Below are positions 1,916 to 43,777 of a DNA stretch of 64,000 nucleotides, in pieces. The translations under genes were made by a program, and so were the position numbers. Origin of the DNA: an uncultured Pseudomonadales bacterium (lineage in GTDB: Bacteria; Pseudomonadota; Gammaproteobacteria; Pseudomonadales; Pseudohongiellaceae); assembly GCA_949430125.1 (NCBI GenBank), contig CASQMQ010000025.1:6297-70296 (forward strand). The letters are read 5' to 3'. Position 1 is the first letter of the stretch, and each line of letters begins with the position of its first letter. Under the pieces are notes generated by a model that was not told the DNA's origin, searched no databases, and saw only the letters and a list, made by a program, of their open reading frames with translations.

Positions 1916-2650
1916 TTAACTGGCTTTCTTAAGTTCGATTACTACGGCACTGGCGAAGAGCCAGGCTGCGATAAACACACCGAAGAATAAAAAGTCACGA
2001 ACATCGAAAACCCCTTTTGAGATAGAGTCAAAGTGAGTTAAGAATCCCATTGATGAAATGGCGTCAATAATAATCTGGGGAACCCAGCCGGTTAGCATGC
2101 CCAATAGAAAAGGATAGCCCAGCAGTACAAAAATCACGCAAATAGTAACTGTGAGTATAAATGCAATCACGGGATTCTTAGTACATGCTGACAAGCAAGC
2201 ACCTATCGCTAGATAAGCCCCCGCCATGAACCAACTGCCAACATATGCCGCAAATATAACTCCATTGTCCGGGTCACCTAAGTAATTGGCTGTTATCCAA
2301 ATCGGAAACGTCAAACAAAGAGCGATTCCTATTAAAGCCCATGCTGCTAGATATTTTCCAAGAATTGCATCTCTGAGATTTATCGGTAGCGTTAGAAGCA
2401 ATTCAATTGTTCCAGTTTTTCTTTCGTCCGCCCACATGGTCATTGCAATGGCCGGCACCATGAACAAATACAAAAAAGGATGAAAGGCAAAAAACGGCGA
2501 CAGGTCTGCTTGACCTCTGGCATAGAAACCACCAAAGTCGAAGGTTAAGAAGCCATTCACCACTAGAAAAATGACAATAAAAATATATGCCAATGGCGTT
2601 GCAAAATAACTTAGTAGTTCGCGCTTAAAGATAATTAATAGATTTCTCAT
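1916..2650 (-). CDS. ABC-2 type transporter permease
   Basis: 244-aa ORF that is hydrophobic throughout with about six TM segments. It overlaps the upstream ATPase gene by 4 nt (2647-2650), indicating an operon. Confidence 0.85.
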   Translation of the reverse strand: MRNLLIIFKRELLSYFATPLAYIFIVIFLVVNGFLTFDFGGFYARGQADLSPFFAFHPFLYLFMVPAIAMTMWADERKTGTIELLLTLPINLRDAILGKYLAAWALIGIALCLTFPIWITANYLGDPDNGVIFAAYVGSWFMAGAYLAIGACLSACTKNPVIAFILTVTICVIFVLLGYPFLLGMLTGWVPQIIIDAISSMGFLTHFDSISKGVFDVRDFLFFGVFIAAWLFASAVVIELKKAS

Positions 2651-3591
2651 TGCTGCGCTCCTTGTCCTTGTGTCTGCTGCGTCACCGTTCTGAACACATC
2701 TTCAAGTTGCCCACGACTGACATGAAACTCGGTAACCGGCCAATGCTTGGCCTGTGCGATTTCCGATACCTGAGAAAATATTGAATTACTGCCGCTGGCT
2801 AGTATACGAAAGACCATATCGTCTTCGCTGTCCTTCTCGACATCACCCACTTCAGCAATGCCGGTTAGGTCAGCTGCCAGGTCGTAGTTCTTGCTCAGAC
2901 GAACACTCACTGCTTGATGGTATTTTGAACGCGATTCAAGTTCAGCTGGAGTGCCGTCTGCGACAATTCTGCCTTGCGCGATGATGATCGCACGACTGCA
3001 TACCGCAGTTACCTCTTCCAATATATGGGTAGAGATGATGACGATCTTGTCGCGGGCTAAGTTCTTGATCAGTTCGCGGACATGGTGTTTCTGGTTCGGG
3101 TCAAGGCCATCTGTAGGCTCATCCAAGATTAGTACTTTAGGATCATGCATGATTGCCTGCGCTAAGCCTACGCGCCGCTTAAAACCTTTGGACAAGGTTT
3201 CGATAGTTTGCTGGCTGACTGAGTTGAGCTCTACTTCATCCAGCACTCGCTGTACACGCAGCAAAATCTCTTCTCCTGTGTAACCCCGAATCTGCGCCAC
3301 AAAATTTAGAAACTCCAAGGTTGTCATATCCCCGTAGGAAGGAGCTCCCTCCGGCAGATAGCCCATAAGAGATTTCGCTTCGATTGGGTTCTTACTGATA
3401 TCAAAGCCGTCGATGCTTATCGATCCATGACTGGCGGAAAGAAATCCGGTGATTAGTTTCATCGTTGTGGATTTACCCGCGCCATTTGGGCCGAGAAATC
3501 CGAGCACTTCGCCTTCCTTAACGGTAAAGGTGAGGTCGTCAATGGCGGTAAACTGGTCGAAGTTTTTTGTTAAATTGTTAATTTCAATCAT
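2647..3591 (-). CDS. ABC transporter ATP-binding protein
   Basis: Walker A GPNGAGKST, ABC signature LSKGFKRRVGLA and Walker B VLILDEPTDGLD in a 314-aa ORF. Confidence 0.95.
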   Translation of the reverse strand: MIEINNLTKNFDQFTAIDDLTFTVKEGEVLGFLGPNGAGKSTTMKLITGFLSASHGSISIDGFDISKNPIEAKSLMGYLPEGAPSYGDMTTLEFLNFVAQIRGYTGEEILLRVQRVLDEVELNSVSQQTIETLSKGFKRRVGLAQAIMHDPKVLILDEPTDGLDPNQKHHVRELIKNLARDKIVIISTHILEEVTAVCSRAIIIAQGRIVADGTPAELESRSKYHQAVSVRLSKNYDLAADLTGIAEVGDVEKDSEDDMVFRILASGSNSIFSQVSEIAQAKHWPVTEFHVSRGQLEDVFRTVTQQTQGQGAQQ

Positions 3592-6977: not shown

Positions 6978-7943
6978 ATGTCTATTGAAGGCCCAGCTGA
7001 AAACAAGAATCGGGTTTCAATCATCTGCCGTACACTGGGGCGCCCTGAATTACAGCAGGCGCTTCGATCCATCGCCTCTCAAGACTACCCCAATATCGAA
7101 ATCGTTCTGGTCGATGCTGCTGGTGACGATTATCTAGACTCGGCAGCCGCCGGCGACCGACCGCTTAAGTTGGTAACTACCGGCGCGGTCCTCAGTCGCT
7201 CGCAGGCAGCGAATGCTGGATTGAAAGCAGCCCAGGGCAAATATATTCAATTCTTGGATGACGACGACTGGATTGACCCAAACCATGTCAGTCAGTTAGT
7301 TAGTGTATTGGAACGTAGTGACGAAACAGCGGCCGCCTATAGCAGTACGCAGAAGACGAATGCAGCGGGCGACTCTCTGGACTATGTATTCAGAGAAGAT
7401 TTCGATCCAATACTGTTGATGCGAGACAACTATATACCGATTCACTCCGTCCTATTCGAGAGTTCGCTACTAGAGAATGGCTGTGGTTTCGATGAAGCCT
7501 TCGACATTTATGAAGATTGGGATTTCTGGTTACAACTCAGCCAGCATACCAACTTCCAGCATATCGATTCTGTTACAGCTTATTATAGAGAAGGCGGTGA
7601 CTCCAATACTGCGGTCGCAGATGTTCGTCTACGTTATCAGGGAGAAAATATTCTTGGTAAAGGCCGCGCCGCCATTTTTGAGAAGTGGCTGCCGAAGTGG
7701 ACGGGTGATCAGATGAATGCCCTTATCGGTCAACTCGATCAATCTGTATTGCTCTGTGACCAGGATACCCGAATACACAGCGAGCTGAAAAAGAATGCGG
7801 AACTGCAGCATGAGATCGAAAACCGCGACACAAAAATAATCGACCTCAATCTGCAGATACTCAACAATGTCTCGCACCTAGAGCAACAAGCTCAGCATAT
7901 CAACGAACTCATCTGCAGATACTCAACAATGTATCGCACCTAG
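6978..7943 (+). CDS. Family-2 glycosyltransferase module, the N-terminal fragment of a disrupted multidomain GT
   Basis: VSIICRTLGRPELQQALRSIASQDYPNIEIVLVDAAG and the DDD motif in QFLDDDDW indicate a GT-A fold. The ORF ends at TAG 7941-7943, created by a 1-nt deletion inside tandem repeat unit 2. Confidence 0.8.
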   Translation: MSIEGPAENKNRVSIICRTLGRPELQQALRSIASQDYPNIEIVLVDAAGDDYLDSAAAGDRPLKLVTTGAVLSRSQAANAGLKAAQGKYIQFLDDDDWIDPNHVSQLVSVLERSDETAAAYSSTQKTNAAGDSLDYVFREDFDPILLMRDNYIPIHSVLFESSLLENGCGFDEAFDIYEDWDFWLQLSQHTNFQHIDSVTAYYREGGDSNTAVADVRLRYQGENILGKGRAAIFEKWLPKWTGDQMNALIGQLDQSVLLCDQDTRIHSELKKNAELQHEIENRDTKIIDLNLQILNNVSHLEQQAQHINELICRYSTMYRT

Positions 7944-8093
7944 AGAACAAGCTCAGCATATCAACGAACTCATCTGCAGATACTCAACAATGTATCGCAC
8001 CTAGAGCAACAAGCTCAGCATATCAACGAACTCAATCTGCAGATACTCAGCAATGTATCGCATTTGGAGCAACAGACTCAGAATTTTAAGAAC
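7845..8093 (+). repeat. Four tandem copies of a 63-bp (21-aa) coding repeat; units are 63, 61, 62 and 63 bp
   Basis: Unit 1 (7845-7907) encodes LNLQILNNVSHLEQQAQHINE. Unit 2 (7908-7968) lacks an A (ctcaatctg to ctcatctg) and a C (gagcaacaag to gagaacaag). Unit 3 (7969-8030) lacks the same A. Unit 4 (8031-8093) is in frame but diverged. Confidence 0.95.
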
Positions 8094-10265
8094 CTTGAGG
8101 CTCATACAGAACAATTACAGCACGCGCATGAACTCATCGAGCACTCTATCTTCTGGCGGATGACCTATCCTCTGCGCTTGTTGAGGAATGCGGTCGCTCC
8201 AGGCAGCAAGAAGCAAGATGCAGTGAAGGAGATACTGGCTATTGAGAATTCCGAGCAAGCGACGGGACAGATCGAAGGACAGCAACTAGAGAAGCAAAAG
8301 CTCGATAATTCGGCCAAGGGCGCGTTAGATAAGTTTTTAACGTCTACAGAGCAGTTACAGTTTCCAGAAACTGAGACCCCGCAACTTTCTATTATACTCG
8401 TGTTCTACCAGCAGGCACACCTCAGCTATCTCTGCCTGCAATCACTTCTTGAATTTGCCAACGTTTGTTACGAGCTAATCATAGTAGATAATAACTCCAC
8501 TGATGAAACTGCCAAACTTCTAAATAAGATTGATAACGCCACAATTATTCGCAACGCAGATAATTTTGGTTTTGTGAAGGCAGTAAATCAAGCAGCAGGA
8601 ATAGCTACAGGCGAGTACATCCTTCTTCTTAATAATGATGCACTTATAGAAAAAAATACCTTGTCAAATGCCCTGCAAGTAATCGAGTCAGATAAATCTA
8701 TTGGTGCTGTGGGCGCCAAGATCAAGTTGCTCGATGGCAGTATACAGGAGGCAGGAAGTATTATCTTCAGCGATGGAGCCTGCCTCGGCTACGGTCGCGG
8801 CAATGTATCGGACAATTATGAGTTTATGTTTCAGCGAGATGTTGACTATTGTTCCGGCGCTTTTCTGCTCTTCAGAAACAGTAATTTCAAAGCCCTCGGC
8901 GGATTCGACCTTGACTATGCGCCCGCCTACTATGAAGAGTCTGATTTCTGTATTCGTTTGCAAAAAAAGGGACTGCGTATCGTCTATGTACCCAGCTCCC
9001 AGATCACTCATTATGAATTCGCGAGCTGCGGCGGGATGGAGAATGCACAAAAACTGCAAGCCAAACATCGTGAAGTACTTTGCACTAAACACGCGGACTA
9101 TTTAGCGGAGCAATTCGCGAACGACGACAGTAAAGTTCTCCATGCTCGCACGCGCAACAATTTTCCAAACATACTCGTAATTGATGACCGGGTTCCCCAC
9201 CCTAGCCTTGGGTCTGGGTATCCTCGATGCTCAAGCATGCTTTTCGAACTGAGCAAGATGGATCTCAATATCAGCTTATATCCTCTTCAGTTTCCTGAGG
9301 AGCAATGGGACGACGTCTACAATACTCTGCCCAACACGATTGAAGTCATTCTGGAAAGTGGCCGTGACGGCTTGCAGTCGTTTCTAGCAGAGCGGAAAAA
9401 TTTTTTCCAATTCATCGTAGTGAGCCGTGTCCACAATATGGAATTCTTTAATTATTGCCTGAGTCTGGATCCTGACCTGTTGGGTGACGCCAAGATCATC
9501 TACGATGCTGAAGCCGTGTCTGCTCCTCGCGAAATTCTGCGTATGGAATTTCACGGCGAAGCCATGTCCGCTGAAGATCAAGCAAAGCTCATCGAAAAAG
9601 AGTTGCAACAATCTAAGCTGGCGGGAAAAATTGTTGCTGTATCAAACAACGAGGCCGAGATTTTCAAGCAACACGGCTATAGCAATACCGTCGTGCTCGG
9701 TCACACCATTGCCAGCAAACCTGGAAGGAACGAATTCAAGCAGCGCAGCGGCTTACTATTCGTGGGCGCGCTTCGAGACGAGGGCTCACCGAACGTCGAT
9801 TCATTGCTCTGGTTTCTGATCAATGTCTTCCCAATACTCGAACAGGCCATTCCCGACATAAAGCTCAATGTTGTTGGTGACAATTCGGCGCCTTCGCTGG
9901 CAACCATTGGCAAAGACAACATCAACTTCACCGGTCGTGTCGACTCAATTGAGGAGATCTATAACATCTCTCGCGTGTTCATTGCTCCGACGCGTTTCGC
10001 AGCAGGCATCCCACACAAGATTCACGAGGCCGCAGCGAAAGGATTGCCTTCGGTGACCACCCCACTGCTCGCGCAGCAGCTTGGATGGAAGGACTCAAAG
10101 GAATTACTCGTGGGCGATACACCTGAAGCCTATGCAGCCCAATGTATTAAGCTCTATCAGAACGAGAAGCTCTGGCAGGATGTTCGAGATGCGGGCTTAG
10201 CAGCGATAATCGAAGACTGTTCGCAAGAGACTTTCCGAAAAAAACTAGCCGGACTTTTTAGCTAA
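8064..10265 (+). CDS. Coiled-coil, GT2 and GT1/GT4-like glycosyltransferase, the C-terminal fragment of the disrupted multidomain GT
   Basis: It is in the same frame as 6978..7943 (offset 1086 nt). In-frame repeat-encoded sequence resumes in unit 3, at about 7975. The GT2 region is LSIILVFYQQ...IIVDNNSTDET...LLLNNDA. The C-terminal GT-B-like region is LLFVGA...NINFTGRVDS...IPHKIHEAAAKGLP. The only canonical start is TTG 8064, and it has no Shine-Dalgarno sequence. Confidence 0.75.
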   Translation: MEQQTQNFKNLEAHTEQLQHAHELIEHSIFWRMTYPLRLLRNAVAPGSKKQDAVKEILAIENSEQATGQIEGQQLEKQKLDNSAKGALDKFLTSTEQLQFPETETPQLSIILVFYQQAHLSYLCLQSLLEFANVCYELIIVDNNSTDETAKLLNKIDNATIIRNADNFGFVKAVNQAAGIATGEYILLLNNDALIEKNTLSNALQVIESDKSIGAVGAKIKLLDGSIQEAGSIIFSDGACLGYGRGNVSDNYEFMFQRDVDYCSGAFLLFRNSNFKALGGFDLDYAPAYYEESDFCIRLQKKGLRIVYVPSSQITHYEFASCGGMENAQKLQAKHREVLCTKHADYLAEQFANDDSKVLHARTRNNFPNILVIDDRVPHPSLGSGYPRCSSMLFELSKMDLNISLYPLQFPEEQWDDVYNTLPNTIEVILESGRDGLQSFLAERKNFFQFIVVSRVHNMEFFNYCLSLDPDLLGDAKIIYDAEAVSAPREILRMEFHGEAMSAEDQAKLIEKELQQSKLAGKIVAVSNNEAEIFKQHGYSNTVVLGHTIASKPGRNEFKQRSGLLFVGALRDEGSPNVDSLLWFLINVFPILEQAIPDIKLNVVGDNSAPSLATIGKDNINFTGRVDSIEEIYNISRVFIAPTRFAAGIPHKIHEAAAKGLPSVTTPLLAQQLGWKDSKELLVGDTPEAYAAQCIKLYQNEKLWQDVRDAGLAAIIEDCSQETFRKKLAGLFS

Positions 10266-11197
10266 AACCGTCTAGCCAAGCGATAAATGAGGCGCTGCAC
10301 AATACCAATCTTAATCCCCATCCCTATGCAGAGTCGCAGGCTTAGCCGCTCCCTGCCAGACAACTGAGATCCATAGCGGCGATTAAACTCGGCCGCTTGA
10401 ATAGATACCTCAATCAGATGTTCACTAGGCTTTCGCGCCAGTATCCTACTCCACAATGACATGCTGACAACAGAAACCTTAGTAAACTCTTTTGCCCCGA
10501 TGGTGTTATTGCCATGTTGGCGGTAATGCACCAAGGGAGTATCCAGGTAGACTAATTTCCCGAATGCAGTAGCAACTAGAGCCAGCCACCAATCGTGCAT
10601 GATCGCCTTTTCAGGAATTGGTAGCGCCTTCTCCGCTAGAGGCTCGTTAATCAGCGCGGTGCATCCTGTCACTAAATTACTGATAACGAGATTGGGAAAG
10701 CTATTCCTCTCAATTTCTAAACCCTGATAGCTAATCAAGGATTTCGCTATCACCATATTTTGCTCGGAAACTACTTCGAGATCGCTATGAACAATTATGG
10801 GTAATGTAGAACCGTTATCCGCTTCCGTTGCCAGCATCGCCGCCAACAGTTTCTCTATCTTCTCAGGAAACCATGTATCGTCCTGATCACAGAACATCAT
10901 ATAAATCGACTTCAACCCTAGTAACTCTTTGCTCTTAAGTACGTAATCGGCAAGGAAGGCGAAGCTAGCGCTCGCTCCCATATTTACACCATCGCGAGAT
11001 ATAAGATGAATTCGTTCTGGATGATCACCAGCATAGCTCTCAAGAATAGAAACCGTTCTGTCACGCGAACCGTCGTCTCTCACTACCAGAATGAAATTTT
11101 TATGGGATTGGGCTAGCAACGAATCAAGTTGTTCACCGAGGAATTTCTCCCCGTTGTAGGTCGAGAGCAGTACAGCGATCTTTGTGTATATGCTCAT
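10262..11197 (-). CDS. Family-2 glycosyltransferase
   Basis: IAVLLSTYNGEKFLGEQLDSLLAQSHKNFILVVRDDGS and the DxD motif in FCDQDDTW. The 311-aa ORF shares 4 nt with the end of the convergent plus-strand GT gene. Confidence 0.85.
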   Translation of the reverse strand: MSIYTKIAVLLSTYNGEKFLGEQLDSLLAQSHKNFILVVRDDGSRDRTVSILESYAGDHPERIHLISRDGVNMGASASFAFLADYVLKSKELLGLKSIYMMFCDQDDTWFPEKIEKLLAAMLATEADNGSTLPIIVHSDLEVVSEQNMVIAKSLISYQGLEIERNSFPNLVISNLVTGCTALINEPLAEKALPIPEKAIMHDWWLALVATAFGKLVYLDTPLVHYRQHGNNTIGAKEFTKVSVVSMSLWSRILARKPSEHLIEVSIQAAEFNRRYGSQLSGRERLSLRLCIGMGIKIGIVQRLIYRLARRF

Positions 11198-11203
11198 CTG
11201 CTA

Positions 11204-12217
11204 CTAAACCAGTGTCTTGGCATCACGAATGCCGGAACGAATAGTTTGAAAATATTGACGGCGCTGCCCAGAGGTTGCCAATAACCAGCTTGCTTTTAGT
11301 GTGAAGCGAATCATGTCGCGCAACTTCCATCCCAAGGGAGAATAGACTGCGCCATAGAGATGAATTCTATTCCTACTGGAATAATAGATACGTGAGGGAT
11401 TGTGCTGAGCGATTAATCCTGCTTTCACCAACGGATTGGAGCTGCGCTCACCTATAGCGTGGTACAGCACTGCCGCGTCGGTACCCACCAGGTCGAAACC
11501 CAGCGACTTGGCACGAAAGCACCATTCCAGATCGATATTATCAATAAAGTAACTTTCTTTCATGTCTCCCACCTCATCGATACATTTGAGAGCGAGCAGA
11601 GATCCGGAAGTAATAAGAAAATCAGCGATGAAATGCTTCCCCTGACCCGCGAAGGATCGATCGGAACGCCAGAAGATCTTGCTGAACAATTTAAATGGCG
11701 ACTGACGCATAGTCTGAGGATTGATAATTCTAGGGCCTATTGCGGCTATACCATTCTCGCTGAAGCGACTCGCCTCGATGTGCGCGTCTACCATACGCGC
11801 TATGAAAAGGTTGCAGAGGCTACTGTCCTGATCGAACAGGAACACGTACTCATAATTTTTAGATCGCGCGCAATTGATGCCTTGATTGAGAGCCTTTGCC
11901 AGGCCTTCGTTCTCGTTGAGGCGAATTAATTCGATACAGCGCTTATAGACCATGATCGACGCTGCCAGCTCGTCGATTGCGACGGATCCATTGTCGATGA
12001 CTAGAAAGTCGGTTTCCTTGTTGAGCTGATTAACCAGTTTTAGTAATGCAGTTATATCGGGGTTGTAGGTGACCACAACAGCGCAGCTACCCCTTTGCAC
12101 AGGGTTAGTCGCCTCAGTGCCGTCGCTAGCTGTCACCTGGCACTTCCGCAGAGATAGTGAGTCGAGTTGGATCGCTGCTGGATATGATAAGGAAATAGCC
12201 AATGGACAGCACGCCAA
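11204..12217 (-). CDS. Family-2 glycosyltransferase, rhamnosyltransferase-like
   Basis: AVVVTYNPD...FLVIDNGS...FLFDQDS is the pattern seen in WbbL/RfbQ-type GT2 enzymes. The start is uncertain: ATG 12217 overlaps the upstream gene by 92 nt. In-frame GTG codons at 12136 or 12100 (VQRGSCAVVVTYNP) are more plausible. Confidence 0.8.
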   Translation of the reverse strand: MACCPLAISLSYPAAIQLDSLSLRKCQVTASDGTEATNPVQRGSCAVVVTYNPDITALLKLVNQLNKETDFLVIDNGSVAIDELAASIMVYKRCIELIRLNENEGLAKALNQGINCARSKNYEYVFLFDQDSSLCNLFIARMVDAHIEASRFSENGIAAIGPRIINPQTMRQSPFKLFSKIFWRSDRSFAGQGKHFIADFLITSGSLLALKCIDEVGDMKESYFIDNIDLEWCFRAKSLGFDLVGTDAAVLYHAIGERSSNPLVKAGLIAQHNPSRIYYSSRNRIHLYGAVYSPLGWKLRDMIRFTLKASWLLATSGQRRQYFQTIRSGIRDAKTLV

Positions 12218-12635
12218 GGCTCAAGCCGACAACTACTCCCGCATCCAAGATCCCGCGCCAGGGCTGCGGCATGCTGCGCGCAATAAGTACAAAACAAATG
12301 ATCATAGTAGTCAGCGCGACGGAGACAATCTGTCGTCTGCGAGTCGCATAGATATAACCCATGCAGAAAAGTGGCGCGAGCAGCAAATGTAATGGTCGCG
12401 GGTTATTGGCGAGATAACGGGCTCGAACAACCACTCTGGGCGCGAAGCCCAGATGAAACCCCTTATAACCTTCCGCATAGGCCATGTAGATTACGCTGAA
12501 AGCCAAGGTTAACCAGTGGACCATACTCATAGACGAGTTTTCTAGCTCAAGCGCCATAGGTGCTAGCCTAAATATCGCGAATATCAGCAGTAATAAGACC
12601 CCGCCAATACCCCATGCCATTCCAAATACTTTCAA
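12126..12635 (-). CDS. Integral membrane protein of unknown function
   Basis: 169 aa with 4-5 hydrophobic helices and no motif I recognise. It is co-directional with, and overlaps, the downstream GT gene. Confidence 0.5.
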   Translation of the reverse strand: MKVFGMAWGIGGVLLLLIFAIFRLAPMALELENSSMSMVHWLTLAFSVIYMAYAEGYKGFHLGFAPRVVVRARYLANNPRPLHLLLAPLFCMGYIYATRRRQIVSVALTTMIICFVLIARSMPQPWRGILDAGVVVGLSLGVLSIGYFLIISSSDPTRLTISAEVPGDS

Positions 12636-25244: not shown

Positions 25245-26577
25245 ATGATGAACAACGAACAAGATAGCATTGGCATGATCGAATGGTTTCGTGCCTCAAC
25301 GAGTTATATCAATACACATCGAGGAAAGGTATTCGTCGTGTTATTGAGCGGCGAAGCGTTGGCGGACAAAAACCTACCCAACGTTATCTATGACCTAACA
25401 CTACTGCACAGTCTTGGCGTAAAGCTAGTGCTCGTTCATGGCGCTAGACCACAGATTTCTGCCGCGCTAGAAAACGATGCCAAGGTCTCATCCTATCATC
25501 GCAATATTCGCATCACAGAAGCAGATTGCATCGAGACTGTGACACGCGTTGTCGGTGGAGAAAGCGCAAAACTCGAAGCTCTCTTCTCCATGGGCATAAG
25601 TAATTCCCCAATGCAGGGCTCTGATGTACGTCTTTGTCGAGGAAATTTCGTAACAGCCAAACCCGCTGGCATTCACGATGGCATCGACTATCAATACACG
25701 GGAAACGTGAGAAAAATACGCGCCACTGCAATCCAGCAACAGCTGGAACAGAATAATATCGTGCTGCTTTCGAATCTGGGTTATTCGCTAACGGGCGAAA
25801 TCTTCAACCTATCTGCAGAAGAAGTAGCGGCAGAGGCTGCCATAGCACTGCAAGCAGAAAAACTGATTCTAATGATTCCACGCCCTGGCGTACTGGATGA
25901 TGACGGTAGCTTGGTTGCTTCACTAAGTGGAGATGACGCCAGATTCTATGCGGACAAACTTGCCAAGTTAGATGAGGAGTCGCAGTGCATAAGTCGTGCA
26001 CTCGATACCTGCCTGCGCGCCTATTCTAATAAAGTTCATCGGTCGCACCTGATTAGCTTCAAGGAGAATGGCGCTCTAATACGCGAACTGTTTACGCGGC
26101 AAGGAAACGGCACGCTAATTAGCAGTGATAGCTTCGAGGATTTGCGCGTCGCAACTATTGAAGACGTCGCTGGCATACTCAAACTCATTAGACCTTTAGA
26201 AGAGAACGGTTCGCTGGTAGAGCGTTCTCGCGAATTGCTAGAGACAGAAATCGATAATTTCAAGATCGTTGAGCTAGAAGACTCCGTCATTGCCTGCGCA
26301 GCACTCTATCCTATCGGGGAAGACTTCGCAGAGGTTGCCTGCATCGCTATCGACAATAGCTTTCAGAAGAATGGCTATGGTGACTCGCCTCCTGAGCAGC
26401 CTTGAGAGTCAAGCCAAGGCGGCAGGTATCAAGAAGATTTTCGTATTGACTACTGTTGCATCACACTGGTTTTTGGGAAAGGGATTTTTGGAAGTGGAAC
26501 TTAGCGATCTGCCTGAACAAAGACAAGAACTCTACAACTACCAGCGTAAGTCGAAGGCATTGTTAAAGGTATTGTAG
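25245..26577 (+). pseudogene. argA: N-acetylglutamate synthase (ArgA) with a +1 frameshift near 26385
   Basis: ORF 25245..26405 carries the kinase-like domain (WFRASTSYINTHRGKVFVVLLSGEA) and the start of the GNAT domain. ORF 26290..26577 in the +1 frame carries the conserved C-terminus RLLSSLESQAKAAGIKKIFVLTTVASHWF...ELYNYQRKSKALL. Deleting the T at 26385 (ggt gac T cgc ctc) joins GYGD to RLLSSLE with no gap relative to ArgA homologues. Confidence 0.85.
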
Positions 26578-30398: not shown

Positions 30399-30501
30399 CG
30401 CACTTAGCCTTCTTCTAAAGTGTTTGCAAGCTTTCACTATTGCTGTATGTTTGCCGTAGATTCCCAACATCATTCAATCAAACATCCGACAGGAAAATCT
30501 C

Positions 30502-30784
30502 ATAGTTAACGAAGGCAATCATGAACCCATCGAAGAATTAAGTGAAGAGACGCGAGATATGCATAGAGCTATTACTTCTTTGATGGAAGAAATCGAAGCT
30601 GTCGATTGGTATAACCAGCGCGTCGACGCATGTAAAGATCCAGAACTCAAAGCAATCCTCGCACACAATCAAGATGAACAAAAAAACACGCGACCATAGT
30701 TCTCAAATGGATTCAACGTCGAGGTAAAACTCTAAACAAGGAATTTAAAGACTGCCTGTTTATCGGAAAAAAATCGGCCACTAG
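30502..30784 (+). pseudogene. Ferritin-like (encapsulated-ferritin type) gene with an ATA start and two poly(A) frameshifts
   Basis: Frame 1 reads (I)VNEGNHEPIEELSEETRDMHRAITSLMEEIEAVDWYNQRVDACKDPELKAILAHNQDEQK. After A7 (30680-30686) homology continues in another frame: HATIVLKWIQRRGKTLNKEFKDCLFIGKK. After a second A7 (30767-30773) it shifts frame again to IGH-stop. AGGAAA sits 8 nt before ATA 30502, and there is no ATG, GTG or TTG upstream in frame. Confidence 0.6.
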
Positions 30785-30803
30785 CCCAGAGTGCTATTCG
30801 CTA

Positions 30804-31409
30804 ATGATTCCTGCCGATGACGCACTGCAAGGACTGCAAGGACTGCGTCAAGGAAACGAAACGAAACGTTTCGATCCGGCAAGGTTTTTCATATTGAGAC
30901 AGAAATACTATTAAAACTGAATTCGCAGAAATGACAAAATCCTTTTGCGATAATACTCGGCTGTTCAGATTCATGGGTGCCTGCAGAAGTAGTATTTGGC
31001 CAAGGAATTGGCGACCTCTTTACTATTCGCGTCGCTGGTAGTATCGTCGCAGACTGCGAGCATCGAATTTGCCGCGGAAACTTCGGCACTCGTTTAGTAG
31101 TCGTCCTCGGCCACTCCAGATGCGGTGCCGTGCCGGCAACACTTGAGCAATTAGATAGGCCAGTTGCGAATAGATCACCCCACCTTTACTTAAATAGTCG
31201 ATTAAATTCGCTCTGCCGTTGAAAACCTGCTGCAATCAGGAAGCGATGAAGACTTAATGAGTCGCGCGGTACGATCCAATATTGAGGCATCCGTTAACAA
31301 TCTGTAGCTAGGATCAGACATTTTTAAAGGTCTAGTTTCCGATAAAGGCCTAATGATTGTAGGCGTCGAATACTGCCTCGATAGTGGTCTGATCGACTTC
31401 TTCAAATAA
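30804..31409 (+). pseudogene. Beta-class carbonic anhydrase, multiply frameshifted
   Basis: Fragments are spread over three frames: MIPADDALQGLQGLRQGNE; VPAEVVFGQGIGDLFTIRVAGSIVA; SQTASIEFAAE; FGTRLVVVLGHSRCGAV.ATLEQL. The C-terminal part is interrupted by several stops. A 9-nt duplication (30825-30842) and a 5-nt triplication (30853-30867) lie near the 5' end. Confidence 0.75.
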
Positions 31410-31465
31410 ATTCTTGAAGTGTCACGGAAAACCCCATCAATCACTATTGCCTGGTTAGAAATACT

Positions 31466-32031
31466 ATGAGCGACGTCTACGAGCTAGAAAATGCACGTGT
31501 CGTGCGGCGCCAGTGGCGAAGCGAAGACTATGCAGGCTTTGCCGCCATGAAGCAGACCCCAACGTAATTCTTTAATTTCCAAGATTACTTTCTCGTAAAG
31601 AGAGCGACTCACTAACTAAGAAACTTGACAATCTAGTTGCCGAAAAACACTCGAGTTTTTGGGTTGCAGTGCATAAGAGTGATAACGCATTTATAGGCCT
31701 CGTCGGCCTGAATCAGGCAGATGATCTACCGGTAGCTAGTTGGGGTAAAGGCTATGCAACAGAAACCGCAATCGCTGTGCTATATTTTGCGTTTTCTATT
31801 CTAGAGCAAGACCGGGTAACAGCCTTTACCACCGTCTAAAATTCTCGCTCACGGAAAGTAATGTCGAAACTGGGAATGGAGAAATCGGAATGAAAATTTT
31901 TTCATCCTAGGATTTTAGAAAATAGCGGGATTAAGGAGCGTGTCTACTACGAAATTTCTCGCGAGAAGTTCTATAGAGAATTCCAAGAAAATTCGGTAGC
32001 TATCTCTTCACAGCAAAGTTCTGAACACTAA
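31466..32031 (+). pseudogene. GNAT (RimJ/RimL-like) N-acetyltransferase remnant
   Basis: Fragments RRQWRSEDYAGFAAM, FWVAVHKSDNAFIGLVGLN, WGKGYATETAIAVLYFAF, RVTAFTT and VMSKLGME follow GNAT order. They are interrupted by stops (for example at 31566-31568) and by frame changes. Confidence 0.65.
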
Positions 32032-32045
32032 TCAGACTCTTCTGT

Positions 32046-34319
32046 TTAGTTTGTGCGAGAGGATCGCAGTAGTCGATCGACACCTGCGTTATACAAAGCC
32101 AAATCAACCGCGCTTCGTACCATCTGCGTATCATTAAGCTCCATCACGTTCTGTAAGAGTTCTTCAGCGACTTCTAATGTTATGCTGCGTAGCACAGACT
32201 TTACTTTTAATAACGAAGCAGCGTTCATCGATAGCACATCGTAACCCATGGCCATTAACAATATAGCAGCGCCTGGGTCCCCTGCCATCTCTCCACAAAT
32301 ACTTACATGCTTACCTTCAGCTTGAGCCGCATTGACTACTTGTTGTAATGCACTAAGTACGGCTGGGTGAAACGCGGAGTAGAGGTTAGCCACACGTGGA
32401 TTATTCCTATCTACTGCCAGCAGATACTGCGTGAGATCGTTGCTACCTACGGATATAAAGTCGACTAACTTGGCGAGGGCGCGAGTCTGATAGACGGCCG
32501 CTGGCAACTCTATCATAACTCCTACAGGTGGGAATTTTACCTTTACTCCTTCCTGGATAAGTTCGCGGTATTCCTTCTTAATGAGTTGCAATGCCGATGT
32601 AACTTCGTTGATGTTGCTGACCATAGGTAACATGATCTGTAAATTATCGAGACCAACGCTCGCTCTCAACATAGCGTGGATCTGTGCCGTGAAAATCTCA
32701 GGATGATCCAGAGTAACTCTAATGCCCCGCCACCCAAGGAATGGATTGGCTTCTTCTATCGGGAAATAGGGTAAAGATTTATCACCACCAATATCAAGCG
32801 TACGCATGGTCACCAACTTCGGAGCGAATGCCTCTAACTGCTCACGGTAGATTTGGTATTGCTCCTCCTCACTGGGGAAACGTTCTGCTAGCAGGAAAGG
32901 CACTTCCGTTCTGAATAACCCAATACCCTCGGCGCCCTGATCGAGAGAGCGTATAACATCTGTCATTAATCCGGTGTTAACCCACAGATGTACTCTGTGA
33001 TGATCCGCCGTCTCACAAGGCAGGTCCTTTAAACCCTCAAGGCCTTTGTCTAGCTGATCCTGTTCCTGAATCGTTTCGAGGAAACGAATACGGATCTGAT
33101 CTGAGGGGTTGGTTATTACCTCGCCCTTATAGCCATCTATTATGATTTCCTTGCCGTGCAACTGGGTATAAGGCAAATCCAGAGCACCCATTACCGTTGG
33201 TATGCCCATAGTTCTTGCGAGAATCGCAACATGTGAATTGCTCGACCCCTTCACGGATATCAGACCCTTCAGCTTGGACTCGGGCACTTCCGCCAACATT
33301 GAAGGCGTAATCTCCTCGCTAACGAGAATCGTGTTGTCCGCATACTCTGTTTCTACAATGACCTTCTCTTGCAAGTAGAACAATATGCGGGCGCATAGAT
33401 CCTTGATGTCGATTGCTCGCTCACTGAGATAGGGATCGTCCATCTCCTCGAAGGCCCTGACGTGTTCTTTTGCTACGTAGGCAAGCGAACCCTGCGCCCA
33501 GTACCCCATTCTTATTCTCTCGACAATCTCATTGCCGAGCGCTGCATCATCTAACATGCGAACGTAGACATCGAAAAGCTGCAGTTCCTCTTTCGCGACC
33601 TGCCCCGATAATTTCGCATGCAGACTGCGCATGTCCTGTCTTACCAACTCCAGGCAGCTATTGAGAAACTCTATTTCACCTTCGATGTCTCGAGTGCGGC
33701 GTTGGGGTATCTGACTAAGGTCCGCATGCGGGAAAACAACAACAGCCTCACCGACGGCGGCACCGGAAGATCCTGACACACCTGGAAATACTGTGTCTGA
33801 GGTCTTATGACCAGATGGGCTAACACCCTCTACTGCGTCAGTAGCCCTCGCATGGGCGATTACGCCAGAGAGTTGAGCGGAAAGCGTTATCAGGAATGCC
33901 TCTTCACTTTCGTCGAAGCGGCGTCGCTCTTCATGCTGAACAACCAGCACACCTAGTACTGAGCGATGGTGAATAATTGGCACACCAAGAAAAGAGTGAT
34001 AATTCTCTTCACCAGTATCTTTCAGATAGTGAAAACTCGGATGCAGCGAGGCATCCTGCAAATTGATCGGTTCAGCATGTTTCGCGACGAGGCCAACGAG
34101 ACCTTCTCCTGCTTCTAGACTGACGTGTCCGACCGATTCTTTCTTCAATCCATCGGAGGCCATCAACACATGTGCATTGATATCCTTGTCGAGCAAAAAT
34201 ACGGAACAGACCTGAGTATCTAAAGCTAGACGCACTTTGTGGACGATAATATCCAACGCCGACTGTAGATCTCTAGCCGCATTTACTTTTTGGACAATGC
34301 TTCGCAATCGCTCGAGCAC
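32046..34319 (-). CDS. ptsP: Phosphoenolpyruvate-protein phosphotransferase PtsP (EI-Ntr)
   Basis: 757 aa with an N-terminal GAF domain, the phosphohistidine region KGSSNSHVAILARTMGIPTV and a PEP-utilising C-terminal barrel (GSNDLTQY, CGEMAGDP). It lies downstream of rppH as in other gammaproteobacteria. Confidence 0.95.
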   Translation of the reverse strand: MLERLRSIVQKVNAARDLQSALDIIVHKVRLALDTQVCSVFLLDKDINAHVLMASDGLKKESVGHVSLEAGEGLVGLVAKHAEPINLQDASLHPSFHYLKDTGEENYHSFLGVPIIHHRSVLGVLVVQHEERRRFDESEEAFLITLSAQLSGVIAHARATDAVEGVSPSGHKTSDTVFPGVSGSSGAAVGEAVVVFPHADLSQIPQRRTRDIEGEIEFLNSCLELVRQDMRSLHAKLSGQVAKEELQLFDVYVRMLDDAALGNEIVERIRMGYWAQGSLAYVAKEHVRAFEEMDDPYLSERAIDIKDLCARILFYLQEKVIVETEYADNTILVSEEITPSMLAEVPESKLKGLISVKGSSNSHVAILARTMGIPTVMGALDLPYTQLHGKEIIIDGYKGEVITNPSDQIRIRFLETIQEQDQLDKGLEGLKDLPCETADHHRVHLWVNTGLMTDVIRSLDQGAEGIGLFRTEVPFLLAERFPSEEEQYQIYREQLEAFAPKLVTMRTLDIGGDKSLPYFPIEEANPFLGWRGIRVTLDHPEIFTAQIHAMLRASVGLDNLQIMLPMVSNINEVTSALQLIKKEYRELIQEGVKVKFPPVGVMIELPAAVYQTRALAKLVDFISVGSNDLTQYLLAVDRNNPRVANLYSAFHPAVLSALQQVVNAAQAEGKHVSICGEMAGDPGAAILLMAMGYDVLSMNAASLLKVKSVLRSITLEVAEELLQNVMELNDTQMVRSAVDLALYNAGVDRLLRSSRTN

Positions 34320-37834: not shown

Positions 37835-40225
37835 TTAGAAGAGCCCAATCTGGTTGTTTAATATTTTGTCCATAGAGGATGATTTAAATACCAATATGGA
37901 ATCTGCGATCGGCGTTAACTGTCTTTCTATATAGAACTCGTAGTCTATCGCCGATTCACGATACTGGCGAGTCTCTGCACCATTAATTGTCATTATGTAT
38001 TCGATCCAACCTCCCGACTGGTACAGACTTGGCAATTCTCGTTGCCTACGAATATCTTCTGCCTTACGCGCTGCCTGCGCATGGGGTGGAACATTCTTAA
38101 TGTAGTCCTTCAATTTTCGGCGCAGGCGTTTACGCAAAACCAGCTCGTTCTCGAACATTCCATCACCTAATTGTTGAACCGTCAGCTTTATGTAATCTTC
38201 GTAAGGCTCATCAAGAAAAATACGCCTATACAACTCTTTCTGAAATTCACGCGCCAGTGGCGACCAGTCACTTCGAACTGATTCAAGTCCCTTAAACAAC
38301 AGATGCGACTTGTCTGGATTGTTACTATCAGCAATGACCCCAGCATAGCGTTTTTTGCTGCCTGCATCTGAGCCTCTAACAGTCGGCATCAAGAACTTCC
38401 TAAAATGTGTTTCAAACTCCATCTCTAGAAAACTGGAGATGTCATATTTTTCTCTTAGCCTCTTCGTCCACCATTCATTTAGTTGCGAAGTAAGATCTTC
38501 GCCGATTACTTTTACTTGATCGTCTGGAACTGAGCCTAGCAGCACAAACACAGAGTCTGTATCACCATATATTACTTGATAGCCTGCTTCTTCAATGAAA
38601 TATTTGCTCTGGATTAGAATCTCATGGCCACGCTTTGTTATAGAACTCACGAGGCGGGAATCCAAGAACCTGCAGCCCACCGTTCCTAGAATGCCATAGA
38701 ACGAATTCATAATAATCTTGATCGCCTGAGACAACGCCGCGTTCTTACTAGCCTTCGCCTTGTCGCGTGCGGACCACAGGGTGGAGATCAATTCCGGCAG
38801 AATGAATTCCTTACGAGAGAATTTTCCACCGTCATAGCCCTCGATCGGATTCTCCTCATGTGCGGCAACAGCAAGGGCCAGCGGATCTACATGGAATGTC
38901 CTTATGATGCTTGGATATAGGCTCTTGAAATCTAAAACAATCACATTCTGATGAATGCCAGGAATAGAGCCCATCACATAGCCCCCGGGACTGACATTGC
39001 TGACTGTGGATTTGTCTACGAACGGTGCGACGTATCCCTTGCGATGCAGCCGGGGAAGATAGAGAAAGTCGAAGGCTGCAACAGAACCACCGTAACGGTC
39101 AAGTTCCAGTCCCGTCAGCAAACTTCGCTCCATGGCAAAAGAAATGAGCGCCTCCTTCTGGAAAATATCCCAGACCAATCGGCAGTCCTCGAGGTTATAG
39201 CGCGCTAGGGCTGGCTTATTGTTACTAAAAAGCTCGGTGATTTCCGCACCACGTTGATCGACATCTTCTACTAGCTTTCCTCTACCCAACAGCTGACGAG
39301 AGACGTACTCCAGTGAGAAGTTCTCGAATTTATAAGTGGCAGAGCGCATTAATTCGATACCATCCAGCACCACTCGACCGGGCAACAATGCATAGTATCG
39401 ATCGGTGCTATCTCTTTCCTTGCGCCAGCTGATGGCCTCGTTGTTACGCCCTAGCAGCAATGGCATTTTTAGCCGATCACAGAAGTCTTGCAGACAACGC
39501 AGGTCGAAATTCACGATATTCCAACCCATGATCACGTCTGGGTCTAGATCTAAGATCTTCTTAACAAACGCACTGATAACCTCACGCTCAGAATTCAGCT
39601 GGTAGAGTTCTAGATTGCCGCCATCATCAGTCTGATCAATGGAATCCTCAGTTGGACCAACCATATAGACTATTGAAACATCACCCGAATAGATTCCTAT
39701 CGAATAAAGGGTGCTTGCATGATAGTCAGTCTCTATATCTACAGAGACCGCATTAAGCTGTGGTCGGTATTCTGTGGCACGCAAATCGCTAGGTATTATG
39801 TCGCTGAAGCCATCGTTCTCATTCAGACCTCCTTCGATCGAGACAGACGCAGTAATAAAACGCTCCATAAGGAAGCGATCTGTAGGTTTAAGGTCTGCTT
39901 CTGTTATCCGGATGTCTTTTTGAACGAGCCTATTTCGAATATCAAAGAGCTTTCGCTGGCTCTTGAGATAGAGTGCCGACATGAGTTCAGTATCGAAGTT
40001 CTTCAACTGTGTTGCAGCAATTCGCCAGCCAGTTAGCTGCGAGAGAATCTCTTCTACTTGAGCTTGCTGCTGCGTAGGGAAGAAGCAGACAGTTTCCTGC
40101 CTGGAGAAGCGAAGGCGCAGAGGGCCGACATTGCTAGCCAGCCAGAAAATAAGATCGACACCCGCCCCAGTTTCGACCCACTGTCTAGTGAGTATGAATC
40201 CGTCGAGTACCGAGTTTGAGGGAAT
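37835..40225 (-). CDS. polB: DNA polymerase II (family B); N-terminus without a canonical start codon
   Basis: Exonuclease motifs (VSVDIETD), pol motifs VLDFKSLYPSII and IYGDTDSVFV. The ORF track starts at TTG 40006. Conserved N-terminal sequence (DGFILTRQWVETGAGVDLIFWLASNVGPL) continues in frame up to the TAG of the upstream gene. The only candidate start is ATT at 40225-40223. Confidence 0.85.
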   Translation of the reverse strand: MPSNSVLDGFILTRQWVETGAGVDLIFWLASNVGPLRLRFSRQETVCFFPTQQQAQVEEILSQLTGWRIAATQLKNFDTELMSALYLKSQRKLFDIRNRLVQKDIRITEADLKPTDRFLMERFITASVSIEGGLNENDGFSDIIPSDLRATEYRPQLNAVSVDIETDYHASTLYSIGIYSGDVSIVYMVGPTEDSIDQTDDGGNLELYQLNSEREVISAFVKKILDLDPDVIMGWNIVNFDLRCLQDFCDRLKMPLLLGRNNEAISWRKERDSTDRYYALLPGRVVLDGIELMRSATYKFENFSLEYVSRQLLGRGKLVEDVDQRGAEITELFSNNKPALARYNLEDCRLVWDIFQKEALISFAMERSLLTGLELDRYGGSVAAFDFLYLPRLHRKGYVAPFVDKSTVSNVSPGGYVMGSIPGIHQNVIVLDFKSLYPSIIRTFHVDPLALAVAAHEENPIEGYDGGKFSRKEFILPELISTLWSARDKAKASKNAALSQAIKIIMNSFYGILGTVGCRFLDSRLVSSITKRGHEILIQSKYFIEEAGYQVIYGDTDSVFVLLGSVPDDQVKVIGEDLTSQLNEWWTKRLREKYDISSFLEMEFETHFRKFLMPTVRGSDAGSKKRYAGVIADSNNPDKSHLLFKGLESVRSDWSPLAREFQKELYRRIFLDEPYEDYIKLTVQQLGDGMFENELVLRKRLRRKLKDYIKNVPPHAQAARKAEDIRRQRELPSLYQSGGWIEYIMTINGAETRQYRESAIDYEFYIERQLTPIADSILVFKSSSMDKILNNQIGLF

Positions 40226-40231
40226 TAGGGA

Positions 40232-42966: not shown

Positions 42967-43409
42967 AGTGATAGCTTGCTCTGATTTTCCTTTTGCTGCT
43001 TGTTCTTCTGGTAACGGTGCTTCTGACATTTAGCTCTCCTGCGTGTGGAGGGGATTCTAGCAGATGATACGAGCTTATATGTAGTAGCTGCCTGCCGATA
43101 CCATCTGCCCCAATGTATTGAAGAAATTATTACCATGGTAATTTCATTGTGGTAACTTGGAAAAATTAATTCTTCTGCGAATTCAATAGGTTTCAAGATA
43201 GAGAAAAGCACTTACACAATATTCATCCAATACTAGCGGGGCTCGCCTTCGCCGAGATAATCAATTTCCTCCATCCAATAGAACTATAAATTATGCAACA
43301 GGTTCGATTTCCCAAATTTCCACCGACCACTGTTCCTATAAAAACAATGTTAGGCAACTCCGATTGAACGCTCGCTACTCTGTTAATGAGGGCGCACATC
43401 TACTAGGAG

Positions 43410-43610
43410 ATGTCTCGTAAGCAGCTAGAGGATATTGAAACTATCCGCAACTATGGCTGCCATTTAGACCTCGAGTTGCTGGCTAAGATGAAGGTCATTT
43501 ATAAGACCTCTTTAGATAAACTAGTAGGTGAAATCCGAGAAGATTATTACTCCGAATTCTATGTTCGGTCCCCGAAAAAGACTGGGCCCGAAGTCTCGCT
43601 AACCCGCTGA
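43410..43610 (+). CDS. Hypothetical 66-aa protein (doubtful)
   Basis: It appears in the ORF track only. AGGAG abuts the ATG with no spacer, and I recognise no motif. Confidence 0.2.
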   Translation: MSRKQLEDIETIRNYGCHLDLELLAKMKVIYKTSLDKLVGEIREDYYSEFYVRSPKKTGPEVSLTR

Positions 43611-43777
43611 ACCCAATCTAGAGCAGCCTGTACAACAACCAGCAAAGTGCAGACCCAGATTCATGGATCTGTTCAGGGCGCAACTCCAGACAGAAATTGC
43701 CTACATCCCGCCATGTGGCCGCAAGTGCCGAAATGGTGTACAATTTCCCGCTTTTGTGGAATTAGAGAAAGTTAAGC

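Follow-up and report, generated by a model that had tools for sequence, protein, structure and literature searches.

Introduction

Coiled-coil rulers for polysaccharide length are known in a few enterobacterial O-antigen systems, where they have been tested by engineered insertions and deletions. In WbbB a single polypeptide carries out polymerisation, termination and chain-length control, and its coiled coil is an established molecular ruler (PMC11231755). An extended coiled coil has been described as characteristic of this way of assembling glycans; the O12 and O7 enzymes have a distal terminator and two glycosyltransferase (GT) modules at the C-terminus, while among the orthologues of O7 ORF6 some stop after the coiled coil and others carry the GT modules (PMC11231755). 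In WbdD the spacer is about 200 Å long, and insertions into or truncations of the coiled coil shift the modal chain length (PMC5082667).

Here we analyse a 64,000-nucleotide stretch of DNA (the window) from an uncultured marine gammaproteobacterium related to Pseudohongiella. One of its genes places an extended coiled coil between an N-terminal module and two C-terminal GT domains, and is interrupted inside a tandem DNA repeat. Our main reading, to which we give a probability of about 0.55, is that this is one three-module glycan-assembly gene with a repeat-encoded ruler spacer, and that the break is most likely a consensus error.

Results

The gene (6978..10265, + strand) is written as two ORFs, 6978..7943 and 8064..10265, which lie in one common frame and are split by a stop. 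The first-pass annotation had described this arrangement and put the joined gene at roughly 1095 codons; once the three missing bases are inserted, the frame is open for 1096 codons. The repaired protein is matched over 100% of its length by intact full-length orthologues (P0001-P0006). In it, a GT2 domain is followed by a continuous helix of ~128 residues, a SIFWRMTYPLR motif, a second GT2 domain and a GT4-like GT-B domain.

The N-terminal GT-A/GT2 domain (GT2a; residues about 13-205; 7014..7592, + strand) matches Pfam PF00535/PF10111 and contains the sequence FLDDDDW, which is invariant in the homologue alignment (A1). AlphaFold2 gives it secondary structure with pLDDT 70-90, and its best PDB sequence match is 9jma, a GT2 beta-1,3-glucosyltransferase. 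Its position makes GT2a the candidate for the module that the spacer carries at its distal end. The central GT-A/GT2 domain (repaired residues about 471-680; 8385..9014, + strand) matches PF00535/PF13641 and has pLDDT 84-92 across most of its length. The C-terminal GT-B-like domain is of GT4 type (Glyco_trans_1_4; residues about 730-1095; 9162..10262, + strand); PF13692 matches residues 927-1063 with 72.8 bits against a cut-off of 27 (E 4.6e-20), the domain resembles TIGR03087 in NCBIfam at a score under the cut-off, and strands and helices alternate in the AlphaFold2 model. The first-pass annotation had proposed defining the GT families by a Pfam search, and that search of the repaired protein returned GT2 twice and Glyco_trans_1_4; PF00535 matched two stretches with 133 bits against a cut-off of 23.3, the better-scoring at residues 472-585. 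Foldseek and PDB sequence searches gave generic GT-A matches only, with no match to WbbB or WbdD by sequence or fold. Averaged over the full-length AlphaFold2 model, pLDDT is only 64.

A coiled coil between the modules had been claimed, and both the structure prediction and the heptad pattern agree. AlphaFold2 predicts a single helix over repaired residues 262-389 (7761..8141, + strand), between folded GT domains, and the a/d heptad positions are 62% hydrophobic in the best register, compared with 36% overall. A helix of this predicted length would be roughly 19 nm if extended. Directly 3′ of it lies the SIFWRMTYPLR motif (8145..8177, + strand; family pattern S-x-x-W-[RK]-x-T/M-x-P-x-R). The motif is the fixed anchor for comparing spacer lengths: in homologues it lies at positions between 353 and 430, in steps of 7. 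The W-R motif is also found in stand-alone GT2a-coiled-coil proteins and in Methylobacter, and we infer that it is a membrane- or partner-binding helix.

The tandem array (7845..8093, + strand) has four units, as first described, and their boundaries hold to the base: unit 1 spans 7845-7907 (63 nt), unit 2 7908-7968 (61 nt), unit 3 7969-8030 (62 nt) and unit 4 8031-8093 (63 nt). Tandem Repeats Finder scored the array 405, far beyond chance, with 3.9 copies and 93% matches over 7841-8081. An intact unit encodes 21 aa, or three heptads, with the peptide LNLQILNNVSHLEQQAQHINE. The longest exact repeat within the array is only about 61 nt.

Alignment with three relatives (L001, L002 and L003) and comparison of alleles place all three single-nucleotide deletions in the two inner units (7908..8030, + strand; 123 nt, 41 codons), and the rest of the 3.3-kb gene is undamaged. 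The sequence CTCAATCTG of units 1 and 4 is CTCATCTG in units 2 and 3, which lack an A at about 7911/7912 and 7972/7973. In unit 2, GAGAACAAG stands in place of GAGCAACAAG, with a C missing at about 7946. Apart from this C, units 2 and 3 have the same sequence, including the variant GTATCGCAC; unit 4 has the similar GTATCGCAT. The A absent from both inner units, the C absent from unit 2 and the common variant had all been reported before and are all present in the sequence. The shifted frame ends at a TAG stop (7941..7943, + strand), which terminates ORF1 after 321 aa. The three deletions sum to -3 and the original frame is back from about 7973, so that the earlier account of an out-of-frame TAG with the frame restored downstream also stands. 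Exact removal of units 2 and 3 gives a 2-unit, 1054-aa allele like those of two relatives (P0001 and P0003), a structure also seen in assembly L086.

In the nearest relatives the gene is single and intact, 1033-1061 aa long and in the same synteny. Three of these loci (L001-L003) have 96.6-98.3% DNA identity, and the fused proteins P0001-P0005 have 86-93% protein identity to the repaired protein. The idea of one gene had been set against the possibility that orthologues are always two separate genes, and it survives, as the nearest orthologues are single fused genes. Differences among the nearest relatives are almost confined to the coiled coil, where they involve 7-, 14- or 21-aa repeats. The 2-unit allele P0001 was assembled identically from two independent samples.

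A comparison of repeat number among relatives had been proposed, and it shows variation in repeat length, in 7-residue steps. Within the window's clade (97-160 aa) the linkers are 97, 111, 118, 125 and 160 aa long, and another clade contains 11 linker lengths from 122 to 199 aa, every one of them 3 mod 7. Family-wide, 878 close pairs have unequal linkers, and in 876 of them the difference is a whole number of 7-aa steps. The stand-alone GT2a-coiled-coil proteins mostly fall in one residue class mod 7 (89/104). Between very close relatives that differ in spacer length, the catalytic parts remain 86-98% identical. Of 21 arrays in species representatives, 17 have a DNA repeat period of 21, 42, 63 or 126 bp. 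The remaining four have periods of 33, 54 and 75 bp (11, 18 and 25 aa), which also suit coiled coils, and the 61-bp period of the window, the only one of the 21 not divisible by 3. The spacer is encoded by tandem DNA repeats, and its length changes by whole heptads between very close relatives, although some of the copy-number differences among metagenome assemblies could be assembly collapse. This is not the pattern of a classical phase-variable gene, as the intact unit is 63 bp and the periods of the relatives are all divisible by 3. The window's gene has lost its frame because of point deletions inside units, not because of a change in copy number.

The gene sits in a small conserved glycosyltransferase island, with lysA-dapF-DUF484 on one side and gshB on the other. 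A convergent 311-aa GT2 gene (10262..11197, - strand) adjoins it here, in L001-L003 and in two more distant loci (L006 and L027). Beyond lies a gene of the GT2 rhamnosyltransferase family (11204..12217, - strand; TIGR01556, 202.8 bits against a cut-off of 200.55), whose true start is likely to give about 310 aa, the length in relatives. The island ends with a 169-aa small membrane protein (12126..12635, - strand), kept in the same five loci, whose sequence has no Pfam or NCBIfam match. GT genes and this membrane protein are the only conserved content; no wzm/wzt, initiating transferase or sugar-nucleotide genes were found in the window's island, and the sole nearby ABC system (1916-3591) is GldA/GldF-like. 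Elsewhere in the window, the argA reading frame breaks off at profile position 378 of 441, and the remainder follows in the +1 frame. Three-frame Pfam scans for further frameshifted genes at 30.4-32.0 kb and 43.0-44.3 kb gave no match, and neither Rfam nor tRNA scans found anything in the window.

Discussion

By analogy to WbbB, WbdD and ORF6 of K. pneumoniae O7, the coiled coil would keep the N-terminal GT2 and the two membrane-proximal polymerising GT modules a fixed distance apart. Because the coiled coil would set that distance, adding or losing repeat units (about 3 nm per 21 aa) would tune glycan chain length. We infer the ruler function of this spacer from the likeness to WbdD and WbbB (PMC11231755, PMC5082667). 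Two features of the locus stand against it. The island lacks wzm/wzt, so that linkage to a Wzm/Wzt ABC transporter, whose Wzt often has a carbohydrate-binding domain, is not seen here, and it lacks the other biosynthetic genes listed above. The distal module is an ordinary, generic GT2 outside the known terminator families, as opposed to a Kdo transferase (GT99/GT137) or a methyltransferase-kinase. A distant Methylobacter homologue with the layout GT2-heptad repeat-SWRITQPLR does adjoin a Wzt ATPase with a Wzt_C carbohydrate-binding domain.

Whether the gene is truly broken is a separate question. We consider it reasonably probable that the three deletions are a repeat-associated consensus error of the assembly, in which case the real gene would be intact with 2-4 in-frame units. 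Substitutions on the window branch (7 synonymous, 3 nonsynonymous) give no sign of relaxed selection. The argA frameshift is a second lone frameshift in the window, and it falls in a housekeeping gene. The deletion of the A occurs in no other assembly, whether in the alignment with L001-L003 or in the allele comparison, and exact look-ups of ORF1, ORF2 and the truncated argA found none on record. Scans of metagenome contigs for the unit junction, both with the A and in its absence, gave 0 matches but also missed the JGI contigs L001 and L002, and therefore carry no weight on whether the allele exists; look-ups by neighbouring proteins of the window returned only short contigs that end before the repeat. 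The same gene carries frameshifts in long-read assemblies of relatives (L085 and L086). Their proteins, P0121 and P0189, were considered as further broken alleles and rejected as evidence of recurrent pseudogenisation, because these are noisy assemblies with many split genes.

Several observations weigh against a consensus error. Outside the repeat, a single 1-nt indel separates the window from its 98.3% identical relative over 15 kb. This makes the assembly accurate on the whole, and three errors within 62 nt would call for a cause specific to the repeat. The unit 4 junction has the same local context as the two damaged junctions and is intact, which disfavours base-calling error driven purely by context. 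If the assembly was made from short reads only, k-mers bearing the deletions must exist in the reads and would hence be real.

These points favour a less probable but serious alternative, that the deletions are real and the allele of this strain is a null of very recent origin. First an inner unit would have lost one base, next slippage would have duplicated that unit, and last a second deletion would have followed; duplication of a damaged unit would account for the missing A and the GTA variant that two units share, and for their being alike save for the extra missing C. With a longest exact repeat of ~61 nt, short-read de Bruijn assembly could have resolved the array faithfully, and the window is almost free of indels elsewhere. 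The product would be a 321-aa GT2 and coiled-coil stub, with the polymerase part untranslated. Such a lesion would be repairable, because recombination between unit 1 and unit 4 could excise the damaged 123 nt and so return the gene to the 1054-aa allele with two units, the structure that P0001 and L086 have. Conversely, a null allele calls for two independent point deletions in about 125 nt and zero in the other 3.1 kb, on a branch that has no nonsynonymous excess. The allele is absent from other public assemblies, all other repeat arrays of the family are in frame, and the unrelated argA frameshift suggests residual indel errors. Two earlier suggestions fare less well. Long decay of the gene is disfavoured, because nothing else in its 3.3 kb is damaged, and collapse of a longer array during assembly is neither required nor demonstrated.

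It is also possible, though unlikely, that the coiled coil serves only for oligomerisation or as a scaffold, and that its heptad steps are neutral slippage tolerated as long as phase is kept. Tandem DNA repeats do vary by slippage without selection, the N-terminal domain is a generic GT2, and neither a transporter nor terminator chemistry was identified in the window. Against this, independent repeat families of 7, 11, 14, 18, 21 and 25 aa all keep the coiled-coil phase, and in the two-gene version of the family the variation is mostly in the GT2a arm, the large protein being mostly 1066 aa. The predicted ~19-nm spacer also matches the ~20-nm ruler of WbdD (PMC5082667), and in the systems studied so far a coiled coil with a terminator at its far end is described as characteristic of chain-length control (PMC11231755).

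The two-gene version raises the question of whether the locus could encode two working proteins, a free GT2-coiled-coil protein and a GT2-GT4 polymerase, as in other Pseudohongiella. More than 100 stand-alone GT2a-coiled-coil proteins exist, and the more distant Pseudohongiella loci L006 and L027 have two genes in a different layout, with a stand-alone GT2a-coiled-coil protein (356-374 aa) followed by a large multi-GT protein of 1066 aa that has its own extra N-terminal GT2. That extra GT2 is absent here, and the nearest relatives are fused. Both anchors, including W-[RK]-x3-P-x-R, are kept in 104 of the 120 proteins listed, most of them with a tail of about 29 aa beyond this motif, whereas ORF1 stops within the coiled coil, its last 11 residues being out of frame. 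Past the stop, no in-frame ATG, GTG or TTG precedes TTG 8064, which lacks a Shine-Dalgarno-like sequence, and promoter-like sites are no more frequent than expected by chance. We therefore reject a functional two-gene split as very improbable. Programmed ribosomal frameshifting or stop-codon read-through, for which the return of the frame after three deletions might argue, is rejected as next to impossible, since it would take three separate shifts, or read-through of the TAG plus 20 scrambled residues in a heptad repeat, in an arrangement found in no relative and with no slippery heptamer at 7905-7915, 7940-7950 or 7968-7976.

The one-gene reading with a ruler spacer has consequences beyond this window. 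Up to 11 spacer lengths occur within clades that are 85-98% identical elsewhere, nearly all of them differing by whole heptads, and these form a natural series. If chain length tracks spacer length, abundant marine bacteria would have a simple genetic route to vary their surface, for instance against phages or grazers, and the series would be a ready set of alleles with which to test the ruler model beyond enterobacteria. A bolder version holds that Pseudohongiella-like marine bacteria vary surface-glycan length through a repeat ruler that grows and shrinks by whole heptads between otherwise near-identical strains, as a contingency locus for length tuning and not for on/off switching, and that the window's allele is a real off variant restorable by deleting the two damaged units; we regard this combination as doubtful. 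For annotation, the lesson is that such genes are readily mis-assembled or called as two ORFs at the repeat.

Among the closest described systems is WbbB (K. pneumoniae O12 / Raoultella terrigena), a single protein in which the modules come in the same order: a glycosyltransferase at the N-terminus, then an extended coiled coil, then two GT modules. It differs in its beta-Kdo transferase terminator and its own polymerase GT families, where the window's gene has GT2, GT2 and GT4-like modules. Unlike WbbB, this gene has no adjacent wzm/wzt, and recent tandem repeats in the DNA make up its spacer, which is hypervariable among close strains. K. pneumoniae O7 ORF6 (methyltransferase-kinase, coiled coil, two GT2) likewise has a central coiled coil and C-terminal GT2-type polymerase modules, and the split among its orthologues parallels the fused and two-gene versions seen here. 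The likeness is one of format, as the distal module here is a GT2 and not a methyltransferase-kinase, and the last module is GT-B/GT4-like. WbdD (E. coli O9a / K. pneumoniae O3), a separate terminator protein with a coiled-coil ruler, has the format of the stand-alone GT2a-coiled-coil-motif proteins, namely a head, a coiled coil and a short C-terminal segment. Its heads are a kinase and a methyltransferase and it recruits a separate polymerase, WbdA, whereas in the window's clade a GT2 head forms one protein with the polymerase modules. In its arrangement of modules the gene follows the coiled-coil ruler format known from WbbB and O7 ORF6, with different catalytic families.

Results

The glycosyltransferase gene at 6978-10265 (plus strand) is divided into two ORFs, 6978..7943 and 8064..10265, which have a common frame. 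The first-pass annotation described them as joined by four tandem units, and this was confirmed: units 1 (7845-7907, 63 nt), 2 (7908-7968, 61 nt), 3 (7969-8030, 62 nt) and 4 (8031-8093, 63 nt) lie head-to-tail across 7845-8093, and Tandem Repeats Finder gives the array a score of 405, with 3.9 copies and 93% matches. Comparing the units bore out that units 2 and 3 are without the same base and unit 2 without a further one. Units 1 and 4 read CTCAATCTG, units 2 and 3 read CTCATCTG at the corresponding place, and unit 2 additionally has GAGAACAAG where GAGCAACAAG is expected. The TAG at 7941-7943 does lie within the out-of-frame stretch, and the original frame is back from about 7973. Restoring the three bases yields an open frame of 1096 codons.

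The module order proposed from the DNA (GT2, coiled coil, GT2, GT-B-like) held for the repaired protein. By Pfam, it has two GT2 domains and, at its C-terminus, a Glyco_trans_1_4 (GT4-like) domain. The AlphaFold2 model (mean pLDDT 64, with the first two glycosyltransferase domains above that average) places GT-A domains at residues 13-205 and 471-680, with a single uninterrupted helix (262-389) between them, and a GT-B-like region at 730-1095. Heptad periodicity is evident along this helix, with hydrophobic residues at 62% of a/d positions versus 36% overall; in each 21-aa unit the a positions are V9, A16 and N2 and the d positions L12, I19 and I5. A SIFWRMTYPLR motif (8145-8177) follows the helix immediately. 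PDB sequence and Foldseek searches returned generic GT-A enzymes and no other kind; WbbB and WbdD were absent from these matches.

The gene is preceded by lysA, dapF and a DUF484 gene. On the opposite strand downstream lie a GT2 gene (10262-11197), a rhamnosyltransferase-family gene that matches TIGR01556 barely over the cut-off, and a gene for a 169-aa membrane protein without a family match; gshB comes next. The ABC transporter encoded at 1916-3591 resembles GldA/GldF rather than Wzm/Wzt. Those of the window's other large genes that were examined have housekeeping roles, and two of these, waaA and hldE, which lie far downstream, are LPS-core genes.

The best homologues are single full-length proteins of 1054, 1047, 1054, 1061 and 1033 aa (86-93% identity, 100% coverage), encoded at loci with the gene order of the window and 96.6-98.3% DNA identity to it. 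Their differences are confined almost wholly to the coiled coil, which is built of four 21-aa units in the repaired window protein, two 21-aa units in homologues P0001 and P0003, 7-aa MEQQTQH units in P0002 (98.3% DNA identity), three 14-aa units in P0004 and one 14-aa unit in P0005. Length thus varies by repeats among orthologues that are single genes, which supports the original interpretation of one gene with a variable spacer. P0001 was assembled identically from two samples, and contig L086 (98% DNA identity) carries a two-unit allele with its CTCAATCTG junctions intact.

The same behavior extends across the family. With the linker taken from the conserved KW..W.G anchor to the W-[RK]-x3-P-x-R motif, and comparing fused proteins at least 85% identical outside it, length differences were a multiple of 7 in 876 of 878 unequal-length pairs. 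In one clade (44 proteins), linkers come in 11 lengths between 122 and 199 aa, all 3 mod 7; linkers in the window's clade are 97, 111, 118, 125 and 160 aa. Repeats of different clades are unrelated in sequence and are 7, 14 or 21 aa long, with one case of 11 aa. At the DNA level, the coiled-coil segments of the window and of 30 related loci contain 21 arrays, 17 of them with a period of 21, 42, 63 or 126 bp. Three more have coiled-coil-compatible periods of 33, 54 and 75 bp (11, 18 and 25 aa), and the last, with a period of 61 bp, is the window's own, the sole one not divisible by 3. The non-heptad spacers, of 11-, 18- and 25-residue repeats, are at loci L021, L008 and L007, respectively; protein P0050 has KAHLSQQILES three times.

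Other Pseudohongiella genomes have two genes at the corresponding chromosomal site (L006 10001-14334; L027 2532-6805). The first encodes a stand-alone protein of about 350-400 aa, in which the window gene's N-terminal GT2 type (GT2a) is followed by a coiled coil and SWKLMGPxRR. The second encodes a protein of 1066 aa whose N-terminal GT2 is a different one, followed by a short coiled coil, SIFWRMTYPLR and the same GT2-GT4 pair. It is in the small proteins that the spacer varies (89 of 104 linkers share a residue class mod 7; range 90-188 aa); the large protein is mostly constant at 1066 aa. The GT2a-coiled-coil module is found widely (875 clusters at 50% identity, E <= 1e-30), on its own or as an N-terminal or internal part of proteins as long as about 1900 aa. 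A Methylobacter homologue of 974 aa, which has heptad repeats and SWRITQPLR, adjoins a Wzt ATPase with a Wzt_C carbohydrate-binding domain.

Several observations concern assembly or other window genes. The glycosyltransferase gene often defeats assembly: short-read contig L026 stops near residue 290, shortly before the coiled-coil repeats, and in long-read contigs L085 (10001-13182) and L086 (9783-10744) it is split by frameshifts, as are many neighboring genes. In the window, argA (amino-acid N-acetyltransferase, 25245-26560, plus strand) has a frameshift near 26378-26385; its ORF breaks off at profile position 378 of 441, the last ~60 residues are in the +1 frame, and taking one base out of GGTGACTCGCC brings back GYGDRLLSSLE. 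The shift, either an indel left over from assembly or a private mutation, is relevant to the reliability of the window assembly. An AhpC/TSA-type redoxin gene (46947-47534, plus strand; PF00578, E 6.5e-23) has an in-frame TGA (47184-47186) at the first Cys place of a W-C-P-Y-C motif (SFDW*PYCKAQ). From the TGA through the following 60 nt, the sequence is unchanged in four relatives whose identity over the region is only about 93-98%, and a small hairpin follows at 47201-47217. The TGA is a candidate for a selenocysteine codon with a SECIS-like element; the fold z-score was not significant and Rfam gave no match. The DNA polymerase II ORF (37835-40232, minus strand) matches its profile only from position 74. 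The N-terminal ~73 residues are found in frame upstream, in a stretch without ATG, GTG or TTG, which suggests an unusual or lost start codon. Two regions, 30400-32046 and 43030-44260 (1.2-1.6 kb each), hold only short overlapping ORFs and had no Pfam match (minus-strand frames scanned) and no Rfam or tRNA match.

Discussion

Of these results, the most interesting is the natural hypervariability of the spacer in heptad steps. Collapse during assembly may account for some of the copy-number differences between metagenome assemblies, but not for changes of repeat type. The two-gene version at a shared site, with a stand-alone GT2-coiled-coil protein and a 1066-aa protein bearing a different GT2, implies that recombination within the coiled-coil coding region has shuffled modules. 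In the window's clade, the GT2a arm appears to have been joined to the second gene at the end of its coiled coil, and homologue P0006 retains the other motif.

The frame break is itself unlikely to be biological, and we put the probability that the three deletions are an assembly error at about 0.6. The lesions are limited to the two inner, near-identical units and the rest of the 3.3 kb gene has none, substitutions on the window branch are 7 synonymous versus 3 nonsynonymous, and the allele is in no other assembly. The lone frameshift in argA points the same way, as do the frameshifts in this gene in noisy long-read assemblies of relatives. A real, recent null allele is the less probable but still serious alternative. 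Outside the repeat, the sole 1-nt indel in the 15 kb compared with the 98.3% relative (L003) is at 15852, at the ruvX 3′ end (149 versus 153 aa), and the junction into unit 4 is intact despite identical context. Since the longest exact repeat in the array is ~61 nt, an assembly from short reads could be correct here. Should the break be real, recombination between units 1 and 4 would excise exactly 123 nt and give the 1054-aa allele again. A functional two-gene split at the window locus is unlikely, as ORF1 is without the W-[RK]-x3-P-x-R motif kept by 104 of the 120 listed stand-alone proteins, and ORF2 has neither a credible start nor a credible ribosome-binding site ahead of it.

An extended coiled coil is a marker of ABC-transporter-dependent systems with chain termination, in which the terminator is at the coiled coil's distal end; in O12 WbbB and O7 ORF6, two polymerase glycosyltransferase modules are C-terminal to it (PMC11231755). 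The WbdD spacer is about 200 Å, and insertions or truncations in its coiled coil move modal chain length up or down (PMC5082667). At 128 residues, the repaired helix would be about 19 nm long, with about 3 nm added per 21-aa unit. By analogy, the N-terminal GT2 would be the distal module and is probably a capping enzyme, a putative terminator, and unit number may tune glycan chain length. On this comparison, the window gene appears to be a coiled-coil ruler of the format already known: the coiled-coil arrangement is like that of the known ruler systems, but the catalytic families differ.
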